From a virus, in the UHGV virus genome UHGV-1660455: DNA of 22,842 bases; one strand, written 5' to 3'. This document shows, piece after piece, positions 101-22,535 of this stretch. Under the pieces are notes generated by a model that saw nothing but the letters and a program-made list of their open reading frames with translations, ran no database searches and was not told the origin of the DNA. The stretch's first letter is position 1. Each line of letters opens with the position of its first letter. The position numbers and the translations under genes were made by a program.

Positions 101-3100
101 TTAACCTGTGAATGAACCAGATCCGTGTGATACTATGACAGTAGGCGAATAAATGGACGCGCCCCTGTTATTTTGAGCGGACACTTTAATACGTACTGTT
201 ACGTTTGGACCTGTTACAACAGCAGAATGCATAATAAGTCTCTCCACGTCTTGCACAGATGAACCACTCTCATTGCCGTTAATATTGATTAGTCCTGCAC
301 CATTACCTTTAACGTTTGCTATAACACAGACGTGTCTTGCGTGCCCAGAACTGGATGAATCCGTATAAGTTATTACCTTTTCTAAAAGGCCGTCACTAGA
401 CCGACTAACGTCAGTTCCGGTGTGCATATTTGCAATGTCCCCGATAAAACTTTGGGCTTCCACAGTCCCTTTGAATTTACCGCTTGTTGCTTGTATCTCA
501 CCAGTAAATCTACCGCCACTAGCATATACTACACCTCTGACGGTCACATTGTTGAATTCAGCATCTCCAGCTTTATTCAACTTCCAACCAGCAGAACCAG
601 CTGCATAGTTGTTGGACTGGATATAGTTGCCGATTTTTGCGTTCTCAATGGTGCCGTCCTGGATGAAGCTGGCCCGGATGAATGTCTGTCCATTCTGGAT
701 CACAAACGGCAAAGCCACGCTATTTCCGGCTGCCGTGGTGACGGCGAAGCGATCAGCCAGGAAGATAACCTGCGACTGCATGCCGGATGGCGTATTCTCC
801 ACGCCGATACCCATCCCCGCGGCGTAATACTGACCGTTGCTGGAAACGCCAACCTTGATGTTGTACATCGCGCTGAGGTCGCCATTAACGTTTGCTATCG
901 CCTGAGCGTTAGTGGTGATGGCGGAGGTATGCCCGTTCACGGTCGCCGTAATGCCGTTTATCTGCGTGGCCGTAGCCTGCTGATAGTCGGAGAACGTCTG
1001 ATTCAGGCTGTTTATGGATGCCTTGTTGCCGTTGACATCCGTCTGCAGGCTCAGCAGAGAACGCGCCGTTGCCTCCTTCTCGTTAACGATTACCTCATCA
1101 ATACGATCCAGCTGCGCACTGTTCCCTGCGACCGAAGCTGACAACGATTTACGCGTAGCCACTTGTGCCAGCCCGTTCTGGATAATTGCGATAGCAGAGT
1201 TCTTCACCCCGCCCGTCATGCCGTCCATAGACACGCTGATGCTGTCGATTCGCTGGCCCAGTGCGGTATCAGCAGTCGCAACAGTCTGCTCAAGATCTGA
1301 GAGAGAAGACGACACATCACCGACCGTGCTAGAAAGCTCATTAACGCTGGTCTGAACCTGCCCGATGTCCTGCGCGTTTTTTGCGATTTCCTGCGCCTGG
1401 AGTTCAAGTTCATCGTTGGCCTGTTTGATGTCGTCAGCCATGCCAGCAATTTTTTCATTGCTGTCCACAGCGTTCTCGATCAGGTCTTTGAACGTCTCAG
1501 ACCCTTTGATGTCTTCAAGGATCACATCTGTGATGTCAGAAACGTCGATACTGGCCTGCCCACGAACCCAGCCGGTATAACCTGACTCGTTACCGCTGCG
1601 GTCAACCAGCTGCGCGCGGTACCAGAAAATCTGCCCCGCTTTAAGGCCCATCTGCTGATATTTACGCTGTGGGTATGGCACATCAGCCAGCAACATCGCA
1701 TCGTCCTCAGTACCGGTCAGGCTGTACTGAATTTCCGTCTTCAGTGTATCGTCCGTATTGGCCGGGAACCCCCAGTTCAGCTCGATACCGAACACCACGT
1801 TTTCAGACGCGATGAAACCCACCGGCTTCGGCGGATTCCCGTCCTTGCCCGTCAGTGTTTTCTCTTCTGAATATCCCCATCCGGACGAAATTTCAGCGGC
1901 ATTGATGGCACGCACGCGAACCAGGTAGCGTCCCGCATAAATACCCGGAACATCGAACGATGTGGTGGAGCTGCGCGGCACATTGACCCAGTTCCCGTCA
2001 TTGCGGCGCCACTGTGCTTCATAGGCGATGGCGTTCTTCGCCTGGTCCCAGCTGACGCGCATGGTCTGAACGTTCACATTCTGCTGAACCACAGAGAATG
2101 AATTGATGACGATGTTGGCTGGCGGGGACTGATTACCTGGTGGAATAATACTTATTGGCCGCTGGTCGATAATGGCACCGGTATCGATACGCGCATATTT
2201 ATCCGGATCGTGCAAAGCGCCAGCAATCGAATACGTTCCGTCATTATTATCCGTAACGCTGATAACGCGATATTGCTGCGCGTAAAGCTCTTCAGACTCG
2301 ACAATCCACACCGATTCCACTGCAGGTGTTTCGCTGTATGCCGTTGTCACAGTGACGGCCCGCCCGTTTACGCTCTGTATCGTCCTGCTCTGCGATGCGC
2401 CGGACGGAAGGTTAACCATCAGACGGCTTCCGGGAGCGGCTGCCGAATCACGATCAAGCGTGATAACGCGACCGTTAACCGCGCTGATGCGCCCTCCCAT
2501 CACTTTTCCGGAAAGCAGCTCATCGGCAACCGCGATGATATAACCAGGCTGTGGGATCTTACCGTCAAGACCAACATCGAACGACACGATGCGATCCTTG
2601 TTATTGGTCAGGATACCCCAACGTCCTTTGCGGTTTGCCTCTGACTGCCGGGTACAACCAATGGCTGTCATTTCGAGCTGATTTGTGCCAAAGCGAGCAA
2701 CGAGATCCTGCTCAAATACAGGCTCCATCGCATCCGCGTAGGCATTACCAGGATCGGACCAGGAAACCAGTGCCGTGGTATAGCGGGTTTTGGTGGTGCT
2801 GCCCGAATAGGTAAAGCGCCCATTAACCACGTTTGCACGCGTGTAGCTGTAATCCACATCGCGGGGCATATCCGCCAGCGCAACGATTTGATCGCCACCC
2901 CAGTACGTCATGCCCCGGAATATCGCCGCAAAATCACGTAACACGGTATAGGCGTCATTCCTCTCCTGCACGTACACGTTACAGGTATAGCGAGGCTCAG
3001 TGCCGCTACCGCCTTTACCATCAGGAACCGGCTGATCGCAATATTGCGCGACCTGATAAAGCGTCCATTTATCAATATTGGCCGCCGTCAGGCGATTGCC

Positions 3101-16821: not shown

Positions 16822-18743
16822 TATTCATCTCCAGATAATGCCCGCGCGTAATCCGCCAGGGTCTTGTTATTGTTACGGCTGCCTTCTTCCTCCAGCAGGC
16901 TGGCCAGAAGTGAATCAAGATTTAGCTGCCAGCGGGATATGCTTATACGCAGCGCCGCCAGTGCATAAACAAAGCAATCGAGCGCCTCATTTCGTCGTTT
17001 TTTGCTGTCCCAGACGATCTTTTTCTTTCCGTCTACCCATTTTTCCACCTGCTCTTCAGCTGTTAGTTGTTGGGCCTCTGTTAGATCGTAGATTTCTGGG
17101 TTATTCGGGAAATGAACCGCTCCCGCCAGCGGCTCGTCTCTTTGCGCCACCAGCGTGAAACGGTTATAAATCTGCTCTTTTGCGGTGTCTGTTCCTACCT
17201 CTGTGAGGTAAACACCATTCTTGTTACGCTTGCGTGGCATGTTCGCCACTGGCTTTCCATAAACCGACGCCCCCTTTATAGGGATCACACGAAACAGACC
17301 GTGTTTTTTTGAGCGGTTGTAGACGATGGTGGGATCAATGCCGCCAATATCCCAGCAAGTGCGGGATATAACCATTTCGAGACCGTTCTGGCGCTTATAC
17401 GTCCTGTTGATCGCTTCATCAACTCGAGCGAGAGTCGACTCATCATCATGACGACCCATAATGATAATTTTGTCGATAAGCCAGCTTTCCTCTCCCGGCC
17501 CCCATCCCCAAACACGCATTTCGTAACGGTCAAGCTGGGAGTCAATACCCGCTGTCAGATATGCCACTCGCTCCGGCACAGACGCTTCAAAGTGCTCTTT
17601 TCGTTCCGCTAAAACTTCAGCATCGGGTCGCTCACCTATTTTCGGTTCCCACGTTTCGCCCAGGGTCGTGTTAACGAAAGTTTTTCGCTTACCCGTATCA
17701 CCTTTTGTTTTTATCCAGTCCTTGACGATCTGCACCCAGGTTGTGAACGGGCTATATGCGGTCCAGATGTGGAATGTAACGCTATCAGGAGGTTCAATTT
17801 CGGTACCGGATGAAGAAAACCAGTTAAGGCCGTCTCGTGTCCAGATACCTGTTTCATCACAAATATACCTGGCCTCCAGAAATTCCAGCTCCTGTTGTTT
17901 AATCACACAGGCATTGTGTTCACAGAGGTAGTAAACGCTGGCAGGTTCTCCCGGAGACCATTTGAAGCCAAATGGTGTCTCTTTATCACCGAATTTCAGA
18001 TACTGCTCTTCCCCACAGTGTGGGCATGGAACATGGAACCGAAGAAAATGTTCAGACTCCTTAGCAGCTCTTTCTATCTGGCACGTACCTTTGACTTTCG
18101 GTGTAGATCCGCGAATGGATTTCGGCCATACAGAACCCTCAATACGCTTATCACCCAGAAAGGTGGGAGAACCTTCTTTCTCGATGTCATCATCGAAAGC
18201 GGCGAGCTCGTCGTAGCCAGCCACATCAACTGATTTTTCACGGTAGTTTTTTGCAGCCTTACCGCCCAGGCACCAGAAACCACGACCATTCGAGAAACGC
18301 TTCATGCTCAGCGTATTGTCCCGGTGTTTTTTACCGTACCAGGGAGCAAGCGCCAGCAACGTCGGAATATCACGAATGGTCGGTTCTACATGAGACTTCA
18401 TGAAGTTTTCAGCATCACCGTCGGTTGGTAACCATATTAGGGAGTTACGCTGTTTATGTTGGATGAAATATGCGTAAACGCCGAGCAACATTTTTGAGTA
18501 GCCGACACGAGCCGATTTAACGACATTCACCTCGCGAATATAGTCATTACCCATCGCATTCATAATTGCACGCTGAAATGGCAGTGTTTCCCAGCGCCCT
18601 TCCTGGTAGGCAGACTCTTTCGGGAGATAATAATTCTCATCTGCCCATTCAACTGCTGTTTGCGGTTGCGGCCGGTACAGCGAACGTAACCCCGCCCGCG
18701 CAGAGTGCTGCAGCCCCTTAACCTGACTGTTCGATATATTCAC
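16821..18743 (-). CDS. A: Terminase large subunit A (gpA; ATPase/endonuclease)
   Basis: 640-aa ORF near-colinear with lambda gpA (MNISNSQV... N-terminus; Walker and nuclease regions conserved). Confidence 0.97.
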
Positions 18744-19263
18744 TCAGCAACCCCGGTATCATTTCATCCAGCGCAGCTGCCTTGTTCATGGCCTTAATGA
18801 TGTCCTTCTTGAGGAAATCAATATGTCGGTTCTCCAGCTCCGGGAAGCGCCGCTGAACCGACAGAGGTATTCCATCGAGAATGCTGGCGATTTCTCCGGC
18901 TACCCGCGACAGCACGAACGTGCAGAATGCGGTCTCCACCACTTCAGCGGACTCTTTTGCATTTTTTAATTCCTGAGCGTCAGCCTGAGCTCGCGTAAGT
19001 CGGTGTCGCTCATATTCAATCGTGCCAGGTTGAAGATCGGACTCAGAAGCGATACGGAGATCTTCAACTTCCTTCCGCAACTTTTCATTTTCTATAGCTG
19101 CATCGCGCGCACTGTACCATTCGATTGCAGCAGCAGATTCAAAGAGAACCTCATTACCTTTGCCACCACCGCGGACAACCGGCATACCTTGCTCCTGCCA
19201 GTTCTGAATCGTTCGGACGCTTACCCCGAAAATTTCGGATAAGCGTTTTTTGTTAACCTCCAT
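18718..19263 (-). CDS. Nu1: Terminase small subunit Nu1
   Basis: 181-aa ORF, same length as lambda Nu1; N-terminal winged-helix region MEVNKK...IRTIQNWQEQGMPV.RGGGKGNEVL... essentially as in lambda. Confidence 0.96.
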   Translation of the reverse strand: MEVNKKRLSEIFGVSVRTIQNWQEQGMPVVRGGGKGNEVLFESAAAIEWYSARDAAIENEKLRKEVEDLRIASESDLQPGTIEYERHRLTRAQADAQELKNAKESAEVVETAFCTFVLSRVAGEIASILDGIPLSVQRRFPELENRHIDFLKKDIIKAMNKAAALDEMIPGLLSEYIEQSG

Positions 19264-19511: not shown

Positions 19512-20186
19512 TCATCGACGGCACTGCTGCCAGATAACACCACCGGGGAGACATTCCATCATGATGGCCGTGCGGACATAGGAAGCCAGTTCATCCATCG
19601 CTTTCTTGTCTGCTGCCATTTGCTTTGCAACATCCAGATCCGCACATTCAGCAGTATTTTTCAGCGCGTTATCAAGCACCGCTTCGAGATTGGTATCAAC
19701 GCCAGAGTTAACTTCAAATTTGTCGGCGCTGATGGTTACCTTGTTCTGTACTGGCTCATCACGCAGGATACCAAGGCTGATGTTGTAGACTTTGGTCACC
19801 GACTGAGGCTTTTCTAATTCGGCGGCGCGGATAGAACCACCAGCGATATTGGCTTCCTTGATGAATACCTCACCGTTCTTCACAACAAATGGTGAGGTAT
19901 CAATCTCAACGCCAAGCGTCATCGAAGCGCAATATTGCTGCTTACCAAAACGCGTATTGACCAGGTGTTCAACGGCAAATTTCTGCCCTTCTGATGTCAG
20001 AAAGGTAAAGTGATTTTCTTTCTGGTATTCGGTTGCTGTATGTCTGGTTTCAGCAAAGCCAAACTCGCGCAATTCAGCGGCACCAGATTTAGACGGCAGG
20101 TCACCTGACAGCAACGCGCCACGGAAAAAGAGCGAATACAGAACATCCGTCGCCGCACCGGATAACGTAATGATTTTCTGACCCAT
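19512..20186 (-). CDS. Conserved lambdoid-phage protein of unknown function, encoded just upstream of cos
   Basis: 224-aa ORF with an AAAGGAAA ribosome-binding site. It resembles proteins found at the right end of lambdoid genomes, but my recollection of the exact family is uncertain. Confidence 0.6.
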   Translation of the reverse strand: MGQKIITLSGAATDVLYSLFFRGALLSGDLPSKSGAAELREFGFAETRHTATEYQKENHFTFLTSEGQKFAVEHLVNTRFGKQQYCASMTLGVEIDTSPFVVKNGEVFIKEANIAGGSIRAAELEKPQSVTKVYNISLGILRDEPVQNKVTISADKFEVNSGVDTNLEAVLDNALKNTAECADLDVAKQMAADKKAMDELASYVRTAIMMECLPGGVIWQQCRR

Positions 20187-20446
20187 TATTTATTTCCTTT
20201 TAGGCGTGAGCCTGTCGCACGGCAAAGCCGCCGAAAGTTAACGGTTTGCCCAGGCTCACAGCTGAAAGACTTTCTTTGATGTGCGCGTGCGATGCGCATA
20301 AATGCCGCGCGATGCGGTTACTGTCTGAATATCAGGGTATTACTTCGTTTTAACCCCGGGTAAGGTAAGCATTCAGCCCGTCAGTGGTGGGACACTGATT
20401 CACGCAAAGAGGAGGAATGGCTGAATAACTCTTCGAAGGAAAAAGG

Positions 20447-20911
20447 ATGATCACCAAAGTAAAAATCAAGTTTATTTCCCCTATTGATGGATCGGTATCA
20501 GATACCCCCACGGAGCATGCAATTCCCGTAGTTCCATTGACAGTATGGCCAAGTAGCTCAAAAGATATAAACGTTTATAAACCAAATGGATTGAAGGCTG
20601 GTGCCTACGCACTTATAGATACCGGAGCAGATCTTTGCTATGTGGATTCAGACTTTGCTGACGATTTAAAACTCCCAATCGCGGAAAAAACAACTGTGAG
20701 CGGAGCCACCTCAACAATAGAAACTACAGTTCGGCATGCGGTAATATCGTTCACTGAGGACGAAAGAGTTTTTTCAACAGAATTGACTTCAGTGCCATTG
20801 GTAAGTAACGGGAGAAAATTCCAAGTCGTTTTCGGAATGCAACTAATTAAAATGGGCGCCCTTACGATGGATTTTTCCAATCAAGTATTTGAGTTAACAT
20901 TTTTTAACTAA
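20447..20911 (+). CDS. Retropepsin-like (clan AA) aspartic protease, 154 aa; AT-rich moron gene on the strand opposite the late operon
   Basis: ORF with a good Shine-Dalgarno (AAGGAAAAAGG-ATG) and the canonical aspartic-protease signature hydrophobic-hydrophobic-D-T-G-A (..YALIDTGADLCYVD..). Markedly lower GC than the flanking phage genes. Confidence 0.75.
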   Translation: MITKVKIKFISPIDGSVSDTPTEHAIPVVPLTVWPSSSKDINVYKPNGLKAGAYALIDTGADLCYVDSDFADDLKLPIAEKTTVSGATSTIETTVRHAVISFTEDERVFSTELTSVPLVSNGRKFQVVFGMQLIKMGALTMDFSNQVFELTFFN

Positions 20912-21055
20912 CCCCCCAGGGATACCTCCCTCTTTTGCAAGACTGGATAAGGGCATTGCTTTTGCTGTTTTCCTAGAATCGGTACCAGAATTGAGTTGCG
21001 ATTTAATGTCTTTTAATTCGCTCTCAATTCTCTTTACACGTTCAGCTAAAGTCAT
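20894..21055 (-). CDS. Small hypothetical protein (53 aa, N-terminal predicted helix ERVKRIESELKDIKSQL), convergent with and overlapping the 3' end of the protease gene
   Basis: Hand-translated; absent from the ORF track because it is under 60 aa. Strong ribosome-binding site (AAGAGG, 6 nt before the ATG). Same low-GC module. Confidence 0.35.
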   Translation of the reverse strand: MTLAERVKRIESELKDIKSQLNSGTDSRKTAKAMPLSSLAKEGGIPGGLVKKC

Positions 21056-21176
21056 GATTGCCTCTTAATAATCGCTTAACATCTACAAAGCCTTCCCGAA
21101 GACAATACATACCATTATCAAGCCCACCAGCAGGTGAGCTTTGTAATGGAAAGCCGTTGTGAAAGTGGCTCTCAAA

Positions 21177-21194
21177 AACCACAGATTTGTGGTT
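21177..21194 (-). terminator. Weak hairpin (AACCACA-GATT-TGTGGTT) with a U-run on the minus-strand RNA, at the 3' end of the Rha-like gene
   Basis: 7-bp inverted repeat overlapping the stop codon by 2 nt; followed on the minus-strand RNA by UUUUGAG. Confidence 0.35.
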
Positions 21195-21879
21195 ATGCGG
21201 CCAAGCGGTGCTGCTCTTCGATAAGTGGCTGGCGGTGATTACGCTCGAACATGCCGCGCAGCACTTCTTTGCGTTGTTCGAAGTCCCACCCCATGCTGAT
21301 GAATACCGTGTTGGCGCGCTGTAGCTCGGTGATGCAGTGAATTTGTTCCGGCGTCAGGTAATCGCGGATCGGCTCTTTCTTCCCGATTTCGTGATGCACG
21401 CGGAACTTGGCCGCCGTCATGCCCAGCGCCAGTCGGTTAATCAGGTCAGCTTCGTTGCTGAAGTGATGCGGGGCGATCTGCTTACCCTGCGCCTCACGCT
21501 CATGCTTGATGGCATCGGTCATAGGCTTGTACTCCAGACGCGCCGAGTTGCGATCCATCTTCTTCTTCGCCAGCGCGCTGCGCATAGTGAAGAATTCATA
21601 TACCAAGCGCTTTTTGAATTCACGCACAACTTCATTGTTTCGCATGTAGGTGATCAACAGCGTGGTTTGCTGTTCGTTTAGCAGTGCTATTTCCTGCTTC
21701 TGCATGCCCCCATCCGTTTGAAAGGGTCGCATTTCAAATTCCACCCTTCCGAATTCTTCGAGGTCGCTTTTGTACTTCCTGATGAGTTGAATCACTGGCT
21801 TGTGATCCTTCATAACACCACTGGCGATCACTGCCGAGTTGGTGACCAGGTCTAGCTTCTTGATTTCTACTAATTGCAT
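21193..21879 (-). CDS. rha: Phage regulatory protein of the Rha family (antirepressor-like)
   Basis: The N-terminus ..LVTNSAVIASGVMKDHKPVIQLIRK.. fits the Rha-domain pattern (T.SS..IA...GK.H..V.R.IR). The tracked ORF runs to 21963, but the Met at 21879 has a plausible ribosome-binding site and begins the conserved domain. Confidence 0.7.
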   Translation of the reverse strand: MQLVEIKKLDLVTNSAVIASGVMKDHKPVIQLIRKYKSDLEEFGRVEFEMRPFQTDGGMQKQEIALLNEQQTTLLITYMRNNEVVREFKKRLVYEFFTMRSALAKKKMDRNSARLEYKPMTDAIKHEREAQGKQIAPHHFSNEADLINRLALGMTAAKFRVHHEIGKKEPIRDYLTPEQIHCITELQRANTVFISMGWDFEQRKEVLRGMFERNHRQPLIEEQHRLAA

Positions 21880-22032
21880 GGCGTGTACCTTTCTTTGAGA
21901 TGAACCTTTGCCGCACAGGAAATCAGCCCGTCGAGGCTCGCCAGCACTAACTGACTTCCTCAAAGGCTCATTTCAAAGGGTATGGTTCGACGTGGGTTGA
22001 ATGCGCTGCGGTGCGCGGTGAAATTCTGGCAT

Positions 22033-22076: not shown

Positions 22077-22535
22077 TCATTTAAGACACTGCTCTTTGAT
22101 GTATTCCTGCAAATATCCAACCTGTTTCGTCACTGTGACGATTCGCTCTCTGAGGGTGAAATAATCCCGTTCAGCGGAGTCAGTAAGTCGGGGGCCGGTA
22201 ACATCGCCCAGGCCGCCGGTGCTGGTCGTTCCGTTCGCGGGACAGTTTGCGTTGAGCTGCAGCCGCTTACGGCCAGCAATGACATCGCTATGCAGACGCT
22301 CAATGGTTTCTTTCGCATCAGCCAGTTCTCCGGTGTATTTGGCATCCAGTGCAGCGACATCACGCTGGCGGGTCTGCATGTCTTTAATGGTGGCGGTCGC
22401 CAGGAGGAGTTTCTCAGTGGCCTTATCGCGCTGGTCTCTGTAAGTGATGGCGTTGTCGCGGTAGTGGTTCACGAAGAAATTAACGCCAGCACCAGCAACT
22501 GCAGCCAGTAACGCTTAACCAGTGCGCTAATCATG
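22077..22535 (-). CDS. Rz: Rz inner-membrane spanin subunit (i-spanin); the N-terminal transmembrane region appears interrupted by a frameshift
   Basis: The ..[28 protein letters not shown].. periplasmic domain is lambda Rz-like. The ATG at 22533-22535 overlaps the lysozyme stop but is in a different frame from the body of the gene. Confidence 0.85.
22130..22318 (-). CDS. Rz1: Rz1 outer-membrane lipoprotein spanin subunit (o-spanin), embedded in the +1 frame of Rz
   Basis: Lipobox LLAVSG|C followed by a Pro-rich segment ..[26 protein letters not shown].., closely resembling lambda Rz1; wholly nested inside Rz. Confidence 0.85.

Follow-up and report, generated by a model that had tools for sequence, protein, structure and literature searches.

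A convergent small gene that travels with a retropepsin-like protease gene in a mobile prophage cassette: a possible late-phase off-switch

The window is a stretch of 22,842 nucleotides from a virus genome (UHGV-1660455). Between its Rha and Nu1 genes, a protease gene on the plus strand meets a 53-codon open reading frame (the small ORF) on the minus strand. The small ORF, its strong ribosome-binding site and its 18-nt overlap with the 3' end of the protease gene had been reported in a preliminary description, and their coordinates were confirmed. As stated there, the small ORF is absent from the six-frame list since that list took ORFs of at least 60 aa. The features of the locus are as follows.

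20300..21106, both strands: mobile cassette of ~0.8 kb, comprising terminator hairpin, leader, protease gene, small ORF and ribosome-binding site
20304..20317, minus strand: hairpin at the far end of the cassette, a canonical intrinsic terminator for the small-ORF strand in relatives
20318..20446, plus strand: conserved 5' leader of the protease gene, defined by alignment, with the invariant block cagcccgtcagtggtgggacactg
20447..20911, plus strand: gene for a 154-aa protein, a predicted retropepsin-like aspartic protease; DTGAD occupies residues 58-62, and a GMQLI motif is also present
20894-20911, both strands: convergent 3' overlap of 18 nt, ending LVKKC-stop in the small ORF and LTFFN-stop in the protease
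20987..21031, both strands: 17-bp hairpin within codons 9-23 of the small ORF, with perfect 9-nt arms 27 nt apart (inverted repeat I1)
21055..20894, minus strand: small ORF of 53 aa, with ATG at 21055-21053 and TAA at 20896-20894
21066-21061, minus strand: Shine-Dalgarno sequence AAGAGG of the small ORF, 5 nt 5' of the ATG
21111..21149, minus strand: conserved hairpin element of 39 nt between Rha and the cassette (-25.2 kcal/mol, z -4.9)

The plus-strand gene is predicted to encode a retropepsin-like aspartic protease by its profile, by the catalytic D-T/S-G-A motif with a downstream hydrophobic-G-x-D/N/Q-hydrophobic-L motif and, more modestly, by its fold. The product passes the PF13650 (Asp_protease_2) profile with 26.7 bits against a cut-off of 24.3 (E 9.6e-6, residues 54-131). 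YALIDTGAD and FGMQL are invariant, as are D58, T59, G60 and A61. The best Foldseek matches of the AF2 model (pLDDT 64) include the proteases of EIAV, RSV, M-PMV and FIV; with TM scores of 0.4-0.66 and E values of about 1e-3, the PDB matches give the fold modest support. The gene is under strong purifying selection, with 39 non-synonymous changes among 106 where 78 are expected. An 80-aa ORF antisense to the protease gene (20880..20638) was considered as a further gene and rejected, being a usual shadow frame whose start codon is lost in locus L012. In PADLOC-DB v2, the protease is only weakly similar to PDC-M08B (E 0.02; 0.0027 for the best of its homologues) and the small ORF has no match; neither component was found to belong to a known anti-phage defence system there, the candidate PDC-M08 included. 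A literature search on retropepsin or aspartyl proteases with prophages, morons, anti-phage systems or toxin-antitoxin systems, on DUF5678 and on PDC-M08 returned nothing relevant.

The local 4.3 kb contains 56 ORFs of at least 25 aa, so the small ORF is unremarkable by its presence alone; it is its conservation that lifts it above chance. Selection was tested on ten full-length DNA variants, divergent by up to 14%. The 162 nt of the small ORF contain no stop and no indel in any of them. Non-synonymous changes make up 24 of 44 in the small-ORF frame against a null expectation of 33.5 +/- 2.6 (P=0.0003). This depletion is found in this frame only and affects both codons 1-23 (P=0.035) and codons 24-48 (P=0.01), and the variable sites are distributed 13/7/21 over codon positions 1/2/3. 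The ribosome-binding site is kept across all variants, the form in locus L009 being GGAAGGAGG (GGAGG) with a GTG start. Because the depletion is frame-specific in both halves, stops and indels are absent and the ribosome-binding site is kept, the small ORF is, as judged from the sequence, a genuine and conserved protein-coding gene. Conservation of the frame in homologous loci, a check named in the preliminary description, thus held.

The predicted 53-aa product of the small ORF is MTLAERVKRIESELKDIKSQLNSGTDSRKTAKAMPLSSLAKEGGIPGGLVKKC. The AF2 model places a helix at residues 3-29, with a pLDDT of 94 for residues 1-20, and the small protein is modelled as an N-terminal heptad (coiled-coil) helix followed by a basic, disordered tail. 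A hydrophobic-Pro dipeptide within residues 33-38, in a low-confidence and non-helical stretch, is conserved in the variants (AMPLSS, AIPLSS and SLPLSS). The C-terminal tail is variable (LVKKC, LFKKC, LLKKC and LFKKS), and its sequence appears to be set by the overlapping protease codons. In genomes of Enterobacter hormaechei / the E. cloacae complex, the identical 53-aa protein has an existing annotation, 'hypothetical protein'. Exact copies of the small protein are found on 962 contigs, versus 487 for the protease. The small protein matches nothing meaningful in Pfam, PHROGs, PADLOC, NCBIfam or PDB sequences, and an exhaustive HMMER search over 1.84 billion representatives returned only its own 50% cluster and repetitive coiled-coil noise. 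By these searches it constitutes an orphan family. It has no transmembrane segment or known domain, that is, no toxicity-like feature. Neither the small protein nor the protease was found in deposited phage genomes by tblastn. In one genome (GCA_900075475.1), the small ORF is broken by an IS5-family element at codon 28/29. The database entry P0013 was considered as a longer protein with a common N-terminus and rejected, since it reflects an IS5-family insertion at CTAG, codon 28/29, at a contig end.

Several elements that may govern transcription surround the two genes. The 18-nt overlap is free of indels in all 77 intact copies of the cassette. The hairpin at 20987..21031 has an energy of -20.5 kcal/mol on the plus strand (z -5.1) and -18.4 kcal/mol on the minus strand (z -4.6). 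It is followed on the plus strand by UCUCUUUAC, and may act as a terminator for the protease mRNA or as a stabiliser of its 3' end; substitutions inside it are too few among the variants to show covariation. The leader at 20318..20446 presumably comprises the promoter and 5' UTR of the protease gene. It holds a mini-ORF, ATG GCT GAA TAA, at 20417-20428 with AAGAGGAGG before it. In phage HK633, this leader recurs at 84% identity and precedes another antisense moron gene. The terminator hairpin at the far end reads AGCCACCACTTGGTGGCT followed by T7 in locus L020 and AGCCGCCATCGTGCGGTT followed by T4 in locus L017, and its stem shows a compensatory change from GCCGC/GCGGC to GCCACC/GGTGGC. The copy in the window has a degenerate T-tract and is not called by the terminator scan. 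No sigma-70 promoter passed the scans of the window and of these two relatives (L017 and L020), either for the protease gene or for the small ORF, and candidates picked out by eye were very weak. An Rfam scan of 20100-21300 gave no match. The hairpin element at 21111..21149 is found at 95-100% identity in E. coli genomes and unrelated phages, and its spacing to the cassette varies (5, 48 and ~375 nt). It is a backbone or module-boundary element that lies outside the cassette.

The cassette has a GC content of 39-44%, versus 47-58% in its flanks. In five backbones, the limits of the homology block fall at 20280-20316 on one side and at 21064-21106 on the other. The flanks form at least seven upstream and at least ten downstream clusters, and the cassette is present in at least five different prophage backbones. 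It lies between Rha and DUF2280/metallopeptidase in L002 and L017, between a 74-aa gene and Terminase_2 in L007, and between a 68-aa gene and DUF1441/GpA in L009. In L020 it has entered the tail module between genes M and L, where the small ORF starts 21 nt past gene M. The junctions are located 9-50 nt 5' of the small-ORF start. The ribosome-binding site survives even with the upstream junction just 9 nt from the start codon; in L020, where homology to the window begins at 21064, it is still retained. The small ORF runs in the same direction as the flanking late genes in every context examined, and the protease gene runs opposite. The exception in orientation is L009, with an opposite-strand gene for a 68-aa membrane protein upstream. 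At the lysis/Rha-terminase junction, the cassette is present in some and absent from others of a large set of flank combinations, and one with/without pair has identical flanks. Cassette DNA was not found in complete E. coli genomes. These boundaries indicate that the small ORF and the protease gene move jointly as one two-gene cassette and that the small ORF is not a resident gene of the backbone. The preliminary description had offered 'the next gene of the minus-strand operon' as a simple account. This stands for the expression wiring, given that no promoter of its own was found and that in L020 the small ORF follows gene M by 21 nt, but not for a resident backbone gene.

Co-occurrence with the protease across related prophages, also named beforehand as a check, is asymmetric. 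The small ORF is present in all 78 fetched protease loci (about 50 distinct contigs), as an intact 53-aa ORF in 77 and as a 47-aa ORF in an indel-rich assembly in the last one. The small ORF was found without the protease in eight loci, seven of which show protease-deletion scars. These seven represent two independent deletions, with junctions at 20865 (9-nt microhomology) and 20902. Since both retain 3' remnants of the protease gene, the protease-less forms are taken as secondary losses. One prophage holds two copies of the small ORF, one of them without the protease.

A similar arrangement is seen in a protease lineage of Pseudomonas-like prophages that is 23-35% identical. A convergent, 3'-overlapping small ORF is present in 14/14 loci of this lineage. 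It is 68-91 aa long, with an overlap of 32-45 nt, a GGAGG-type ribosome-binding site and in-frame indels, and its divergence is biased to the third position (21/19/43). The Pseudomonas-type cassette (loci L077, L094, L096, L098 and L161-L167) occurs in at least three contexts, with homology stopping ~25 nt 5' of the small ORF, which is always accompanied by the protease (9/9 IMG/VR loci). No homology was detected between the Enterobacter- and Pseudomonas-type small ORFs (hhalign probability 0.5%). Judged from the sequences, Enterobacter and Pseudomonas prophages have arrived at one design with small proteins that are unrelated. Within the Pseudomonas lineage, small ORFs are 68-79% identical beside proteases that are merely 23-31% identical, which disfavours a tightly co-evolving binder. 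More distant protease relatives (27-33% identity) have a DUF5678 gene upstream in 51 loci, either abutting the protease start or within about 60 nt. The recurrence of these pairs suggests that the protease superfamily habitually comes with a small partner. At the Pseudomonas Q-holin junction, a third protease lineage (34-39% identity) shows hairpin terminators only, and no small ORF is conserved there. In HK633, the gene behind the shared leader is unrelated and encodes 81 aa, and a late-strand ORF overlaps its 3' end too; given this case, the convergent-overlap geometry may be a general trait of antisense morons inserted at this hotspot. The earlier proposal of a partner of the protease is therefore supported at the level of gene linkage, by the joint cassette in at least five backbones, by the presence of the small ORF in all fetched protease loci and by the second lineage with an analogous ORF. 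Its more specific form, an inhibitor or antitoxin, has against it the lineage without a small ORF, the non-homologous small ORFs and the frequency of the small ORF alone.

Our preferred reading, to which we assign a probability of about 0.4, is that the small ORF is the second gene of a ~0.8-kb moron cassette and serves as a late-phase off-switch (antidote or regulator) of the protease; the expression regimes, the protein interaction and any role in defence are what we infer. The protease gene, behind its own conserved leader and antisense to the late operon, could be active in the lysogen. The small ORF, which has no promoter but a strong ribosome-binding site, would be read only within the late operon of the host. 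Its transcript would run antisense over the whole protease gene and leader, up to the terminator that closes the cassette. The preliminary description had placed the antisense relation at the 3' ends. The 18-nt overlap bears this out, but that view is too narrow for a late-strand transcript that reaches the far-end terminator. Late transcription might then silence the protease mRNA through antisense pairing and convergent transcription, and the 53-aa coiled-coil protein might bind, inhibit or decoy protease that is already present. Such an off-switch would shield the lytic programme of the prophage from a protease with another role in the lysogen, possibly the exclusion of other phages. Counted against it are the genome with the IS5-family insertion in the small ORF and the lack of a callable protease promoter.

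Other explanations need to be weighed against the off-switch. The small ORF might not specify a functional protein at all, its sequence being conserved for the 3' hairpin or terminator of the protease gene and for the overlapped protease codons, with the frame and ribosome-binding site incidental. The strong 17-bp hairpin does coincide exactly with codons 9-23, which are the best conserved, the small protein forms an orphan family, the antisense frame with common wobble positions is also depleted, and the database variants P0008-P0012 have frameshifted or shortened C-termini at A5 and G6 runs. However, codons 24-48, which lie outside both hairpin and overlap, are depleted as well, the antisense frame itself is not open, and the 162 nt remain indel-free at up to 14% divergence while the adjoining non-coding leader has indels. 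The ribosome-binding site and start are retained even where ATG has become GTG (with GGAGG, in L009), and the frameshifted forms come mainly from short or indel-rich assemblies; L002 has split genes throughout. We regard this explanation as very improbable. An independent late gene with a function unrelated to the protease is easier to entertain, although we still consider it unlikely. Such a hitch-hiker would have neighboured the original insertion site of the protease gene and been carried along by recombination, and the overlap would reflect genome compaction. It would account for the common persistence of an intact small ORF without the protease, for the prophage with two copies of which one lacks the protease, for the same geometry with unrelated genes in HK633, and for a Pseudomonas small ORF that does not co-diverge with its protease. 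It sits less well with the cassette boundary in the tail operon, which is flush with the ribosome-binding site of the small ORF, and with the 3' remnants that mark both protease-less forms as secondary losses. Moreover, the Pseudomonas-type small ORF was never found without a protease in the nine IMG/VR loci, and the absence of the family elsewhere among the 1.84 billion representatives is unlike a general late-operon gene.

The pairing could also be that of a two-component effector, in which the protease would process the small protein as its substrate or pro-peptide, for example by a cut at A-M/I/L | P-L-S-S (residues 33-38) that sets free an active fragment once both are present, upon prophage induction or infection. 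A hydrophobic or aromatic residue followed by Pro is a classic retropepsin scissile bond, and the conserved dipeptide lies in the low-confidence, non-helical stretch. The linkage and orientation evidence applies here as it does to the off-switch, and the tolerance of the Pseudomonas small ORF for very different protease alleles is what a generic substrate might show. Against this, a motif of this kind is not common to all Pseudomonas-type small ORFs, the absence of toxicity-like features does not suggest an effector, and a lone small ORF, which is frequent, would be pointless as a pro-peptide. We consider the substrate model quite improbable. A bolder extension of the off-switch, for which the chances seem rather low, is a prophage exclusion or defence module with the antidote hard-wired in the late transcript. 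In this scheme, the protease, made alone in the lysogen, would attack a protein of a superinfecting phage or trigger abortive infection, and once the resident prophage turned lytic, the Q-antiterminated transcript would provide self-immunity as antisense RNA plus inhibitor. A single widespread, uncharacterised system of a protease with a small partner would then also embrace the Pseudomonas cassettes and the DUF5678 pairs as variants.

The cassette resembles several known systems in part. Lambdoid morons are extra genes with their own promoter and terminator between adjacent late genes, as described for HK97 and HK022. Like them, the cassette is a low-GC block between genes that are adjacent in relatives (tail M-L; the lysis/Rha-terminase junction), is bounded by an intrinsic terminator (called in relatives) and has a leader in common with the HK633 moron. 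However, its two genes converge and overlap on opposite strands, one of them needs the host operon for expression, and no promoter is callable. The DUF5678 and retropepsin-like pairs of environmental bacteria and archaea (clan AA, PF13650 / TIGR03698-like) have a homologous protease (27-33%, YALIDTGAD) and a partner of ~65 aa. Their partner is upstream and co-directional, whereas that of the cassette is convergent at the 3' end, and the cassette protease is longer by about 20 residues at its N-terminus. No DUF5678 (PF18929) match was obtained for the small protein at E<=1. The Pseudomonas-like cassette is alike in its mobility and its layout: with a strong ribosome-binding site in front, its small ORF runs along the host tail operon and reaches into the 3' end of a protease gene on the antisense strand. 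Its small proteins are unrelated, 68-91 aa long and apparently lack the coiled-coil heptad.

Lambda CIII, a protein of 54 aa with an amphipathic helix, inhibits FtsH. The small protein is likewise phage-encoded, of similar size, dominated by an amphipathic or coiled-coil helix and proposed to restrain a protease. However, its gene is in a late rather than an early operon, its putative target is the cassette retropepsin and not a host AAA+ protease, and it has no Pfam Lambda_CIII match at E<=1. As in toxin-antitoxin systems, the 'antidote' is found alone and the 'toxin' never, and antisense complementarity is built in. Here, though, the genes are convergent and not bicistronic, the protease is not a known toxin family and an IS-disrupted small ORF exists. 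A type II system does not fit, as the genes are not co-directional and no Pfam, NCBIfam or PADLOC (DNA-binding) domain was found in the small protein. Neither does a type I or cis-antisense system, as the 'toxin' is a soluble 154-aa protease rather than a small hydrophobic protein and the antisense transcript is itself coding. The cassette is an uncharacterised variant of the moron or two-gene module theme.

Retropepsin-like proteases are widespread in bacteria and almost wholly uncharacterised. In prophages, they travel as a fixed two-gene unit in which expression of the partner is probably tied to the late operon. The cassette is also an example of how insulation of a moron from the host operon can go together with control by it. 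With a protease and its candidate inhibitor or substrate within 0.8 kb that is easy to clone, it offers a testable handle on the role of these proteases. Should the pair turn out to serve defence or exclusion, with a switch for self-immunity, it would represent a class that is new in its mechanism. Even otherwise, the small ORF stands as a validated orphan gene under selection, one of fewer than 60 aa that a six-frame listing of ORFs of at least 60 aa had missed.

The window belongs to a lambdoid prophage, from the Enterobacter cloacae complex, that has its late genes on the minus strand. The relevant features, in late-gene order, are listed below.

22472..22077, minus: Rz
21963..21193, minus: Rha-family regulator
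21055..20894, minus: small ORF
20447..20911, plus: protease gene, antisense to the late genes
20304-20317, small-ORF strand: hairpin at the far end of the cassette; in relatives a canonical intrinsic terminator, e.g. AGCCACCACTTGGTGGCT then T7
20186..19512, minus: 224-aa protein with a tail-tip-like domain
19263..18718, minus: Nu1, followed by the large terminase

The plus-strand gene encodes a genuine retropepsin-like protease, based on its match to PF13650 above threshold, motifs invariant across homologues (YALIDTGAD and FGMQL), and an AF2 model of modest quality whose best PDB matches include retroviral proteases. Annotations of E. hormaechei genomes name it 'retropepsin-like aspartic protease' and the small-ORF product 'hypothetical protein', and the accession numbers of the two proteins are often consecutive. 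The 224-aa protein carries a Phage_Tail_Tip-like segment (PF09327, E 1.7e-7) and also matches PHROG 17079; a related 158-aa protein adjoins a distant protease homologue in locus L093. An 80-aa minus-strand ORF antisense to the protease (20638-20880) begins 14 nt past the small-ORF stop and is open in all variants. It was rejected as a gene because L011 and L012 show its TTG start to be lost in the L009-L012 lineage, and it most likely just shadows the protease reading frame.

The anatomy given in the preliminary description holds: a minus-strand ORF of 53 codons (ATG at 21055, TAA at 20894) with a ribosome-binding site, AAGAGG, 5 nt upstream of its start and 18 nt in common with the protease gene. 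Since the 4.3 kb around the locus contain 56 ORFs of at least 25 aa, its length alone is not significant, and conservation is therefore the deciding question. On this point the frame is borne out. Ten distinct full-length variants from genomes, IMG/VR and metagenomes, at most 14% diverged in DNA, contain no stops or indels, and their variable sites fall 13/7/21 at codon positions 1/2/3. When the 44 observed mutations were re-placed at random on the ORF, 33.5 +/- 2.6 non-synonymous changes were expected and 24 observed (P=0.0003); the other two sense frames showed no such depletion. The depletion is separately significant in codons 1-23 and in codons 24-48, which leave out the overlap. In the same test the protease is, as expected, more strongly depleted (39/106 non-synonymous vs 78 expected). 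All variants retain both a ribosome-binding site and a start codon, with GTG and GGAAGGAGG in one lineage. Frameshifted tails, at A5 and G6 runs, occur in some database variants, most of them in assemblies that are short or rich in indels.

Only close relatives (73-100% identity) turned up when 5.8 billion proteins were searched by word index, and exhaustive HMMER over 1.84 billion representatives gave none outside the ORF's own cluster. It is an orphan family. AF2 predicts an N-terminal helix at residues 3-29 (pLDDT 94 for the first 20) with a perfect 4-3 heptad (L3, V7, I10, L14, I17, L21), followed by a basic, low-confidence tail.

The small ORF and the protease make up a single mobile cassette. 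Only about 20300-21100 of the window finds homology, with otherwise unrelated surroundings; the flanks cluster into at least 7 upstream and at least 10 downstream types, and GC is 39-44% inside the cassette vs 47-58% outside. Examples of its contexts are given below.

Contexts of the cassette in fetched homologous loci
L002/L017: upstream, Rha; downstream, metallopeptidase and DUF2280 small terminase
L007: upstream, a 74-aa gene; downstream, Terminase_2
L009: upstream, an opposite-strand gene for a 68-aa membrane protein; downstream, a 238-aa gene, DUF1441 and GpA
L020 group: upstream, tail gene M; downstream, tail gene L

In the L020 group, 21 nt separate M from the small-ORF start, and homology begins at window position 21064, within the ribosome-binding-site region. 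In all contexts examined, the small ORF shares the direction of the host late genes; the protease gene runs the other way. A 39-nt element lies nearby (21111-21149, minus), 43 nt past the Rha stop, and folds into a strong hairpin (-25.2 kcal/mol, z -4.9). Of 16 matching E. coli genomes, 14 have it at 95-100% identity, as do the unrelated phages Fraca, SaltyDalty, Aeromonas AsXd-1 and ECP1; in ECP1 it directly adjoins the stop codon of the final lysis-region gene. Its gap to the cassette varies (5, 48, ~375 nt), and it may mark a module boundary or contribute to RNA stability.

The far-end hairpin shows a compensatory stem change between lineages. Between it and the protease start lies a conserved leader of ~130 nt. 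Since phage HK633 has the same leader, at 84% identity, in front of another antisense moron gene, it presumably supplies the protease with its promoter and 5'UTR; no sigma-70 consensus in the leader passes a promoter scan in the window or relatives. A mini-ORF, ATG GCT GAA TAA, preceded by the strong Shine-Dalgarno AAGAGGAGG (together 20407-20428, plus), lies within this leader at ~20 nt from the protease start codon. Cassette variants keep it, HK633 has ATG GCT GAT TAC CTC TGA at the equivalent position, and it may be a leader peptide or translational-coupling element. The preliminary description placed the antisense contact at the 3' ends of the two transcripts. The overlap is real but not the whole of it: with the terminator at the far end of the cassette, any late-strand transcript that includes the small ORF is antisense to the entire protease mRNA.

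Co-occurrence with the protease, which the preliminary description suggested as a check, is complete among the 78 loci with a close protease (~50 distinct contigs, 28 IMG/VR contigs having been fetched twice). The small ORF is present in all 78 and intact in 77; the other has a 47-aa version in an error-rich assembly. The reverse is not true, as eight loci have the small ORF without the protease. Homology stops at 20902 in four (altered tail, 60-aa form) and at 20865 in three, which retain 47 nt of the protease 3' end and differ from a sister prophage with the same flanks by a 678-nt deletion with 9-nt microhomology. In the eighth, an IS5-family element at a contig end interrupts the small ORF at a CTAG in codon 28/29 (L001 6085-6181, E. 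hormaechei GCA_900075475.1, tail-module cassette), and the protease may still be intact beyond it; the element's end, GGAAGGTGCGAATAAG..., has thousands of copies in E. coli genomes. The lone copies thus represent secondary losses of the protease. They are common, the exact small protein being on 962 contigs vs 487 for the exact protease. The 51-kb prophage contig IMGVR_UViG_2671181165_000002 (L020 and L030) carries the small ORF twice, in identical copies: a complete cassette inserted between tail genes M and L holds the first, and the second follows Rha, where just the 47-nt remnant of the protease is left.

Other relatives of the protease fall into three groups. Those of lineage (a), 34-39% identical, are also antisense morons, between Q-like and holin genes of Pseudomonas prophages; they have no conserved small ORF and are followed by hairpin terminators instead. 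Lineage (b), 30-35% identical to the window's protease, occurs in Pseudomonas-like prophages of 56-61% GC, most often behind tail gene K, but in some cases behind a chaperone-like gene or in one further context. In 14/14 loci the protease 3' end is overlapped, by 32-45 nt, by a convergent ORF of 68-91 aa that has a ribosome-binding site of the GGAGG type. This ORF diverges mainly at third positions (21/19/43 and 25/15/32) with in-frame indels, and homology between two contexts ends ~25 nt upstream of its start. It is 68-79% identical beside proteases merely 23-31% identical to each other, and no similarity between it and the small ORF of Enterobacter could be detected. The more distant proteases of group (c) (27-33% identity, 131-142 aa) have a co-directional DUF5678 gene of 48-109 aa, mostly 62-85, immediately upstream in 51 loci on metagenome contigs (L101-L158); the two genes overlap by at most 30 nt or stand no more than about 60 nt apart. 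This pair looks like a widespread, uncharacterised two-gene module of environmental prokaryotes. A small companion is thus the rule for this superfamily, and in two phage-borne lineages it occupies a convergent position in which the late operon would drive it.

We favour a functional pair because of the linkage, the fixed orientation, the asymmetric loss and the independently recurring architecture. The cassette would regulate its two genes oppositely. The protease, made from its own leader, could be expressed in the lysogen, and the small protein would be made only together with the phage late genes, on RNA antisense to the protease message. The small ORF may thus be the phage's late-phase off-switch for the protease, an inhibitor or decoy whose action antisense and convergent transcription would support. 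This is the most economical reading, at a tentative probability of about 0.4. The regulatory logic follows from the cassette's anatomy; the protein-level activity and any defence role we infer.

Against the off-switch stand lineage (a), which lacks the small ORF, the non-homology of the Enterobacter and lineage (b) small ORFs, and the failure of the latter to co-diverge with its protease. HK633 also weighs against it: an unrelated antisense moron behind the same leader is likewise 3'-overlapped by an unannotated late-strand ORF, so compaction alone may generate the convergent geometry. That ORF (111 aa; 1633..1968 minus of locus L168 from JQ086377.1, GGAGG ribosome-binding site) begins 12 nt past gp73 and overlaps the moron HK633_067 (81 aa) by 35 nt. 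The small ORF could instead be an unrelated hitch-hiking late gene, which we consider unlikely. The preliminary description had offered both a protease partner and simply the next operon gene; linkage to the protease and co-direction with the late genes both stand, but the ORF is not bound to the phage backbone and moves with the protease.

A conserved hydrophobic-Pro bond in the disordered tail would suit a protease substrate or pro-peptide, a role that we find improbable. A non-functional frame over a terminator hairpin is slightly less probable again, given the in-frame depletion. Codons 9-23 do coincide with a 17-bp hairpin whose arms are 20987-20995 and 21023-21031; on the protease strand it folds at -20.5 kcal/mol (z -5.1) and is followed by UCUCUUUAC. 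Some of the conservation at the N-terminus may thus be due to a role at the 3' end of the protease mRNA.

The cassette has the position and composition of a moron, with a terminator and a presumed promoter. It differs from type I and type II toxin-antitoxin systems in architecture and domains, is not a DUF5678 pair, and belongs to none of the PADLOC systems; the protease matches the candidate PDC-M08B only weakly (E 0.02 to 0.003). The small protein resembles lambda CIII solely in size and amphipathic helix. Neither gene was found in 50,697 deposited phage genomes, and we found no relevant literature on retropepsin-like proteases in a prophage, moron, anti-phage or toxin-antitoxin setting, on DUF5678 or on PDC-M08. 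The cassette is best described as a protease moron of two genes that would be under opposite regulation. If true, a reading in terms of self-immunity and defence would make it considerably more interesting.
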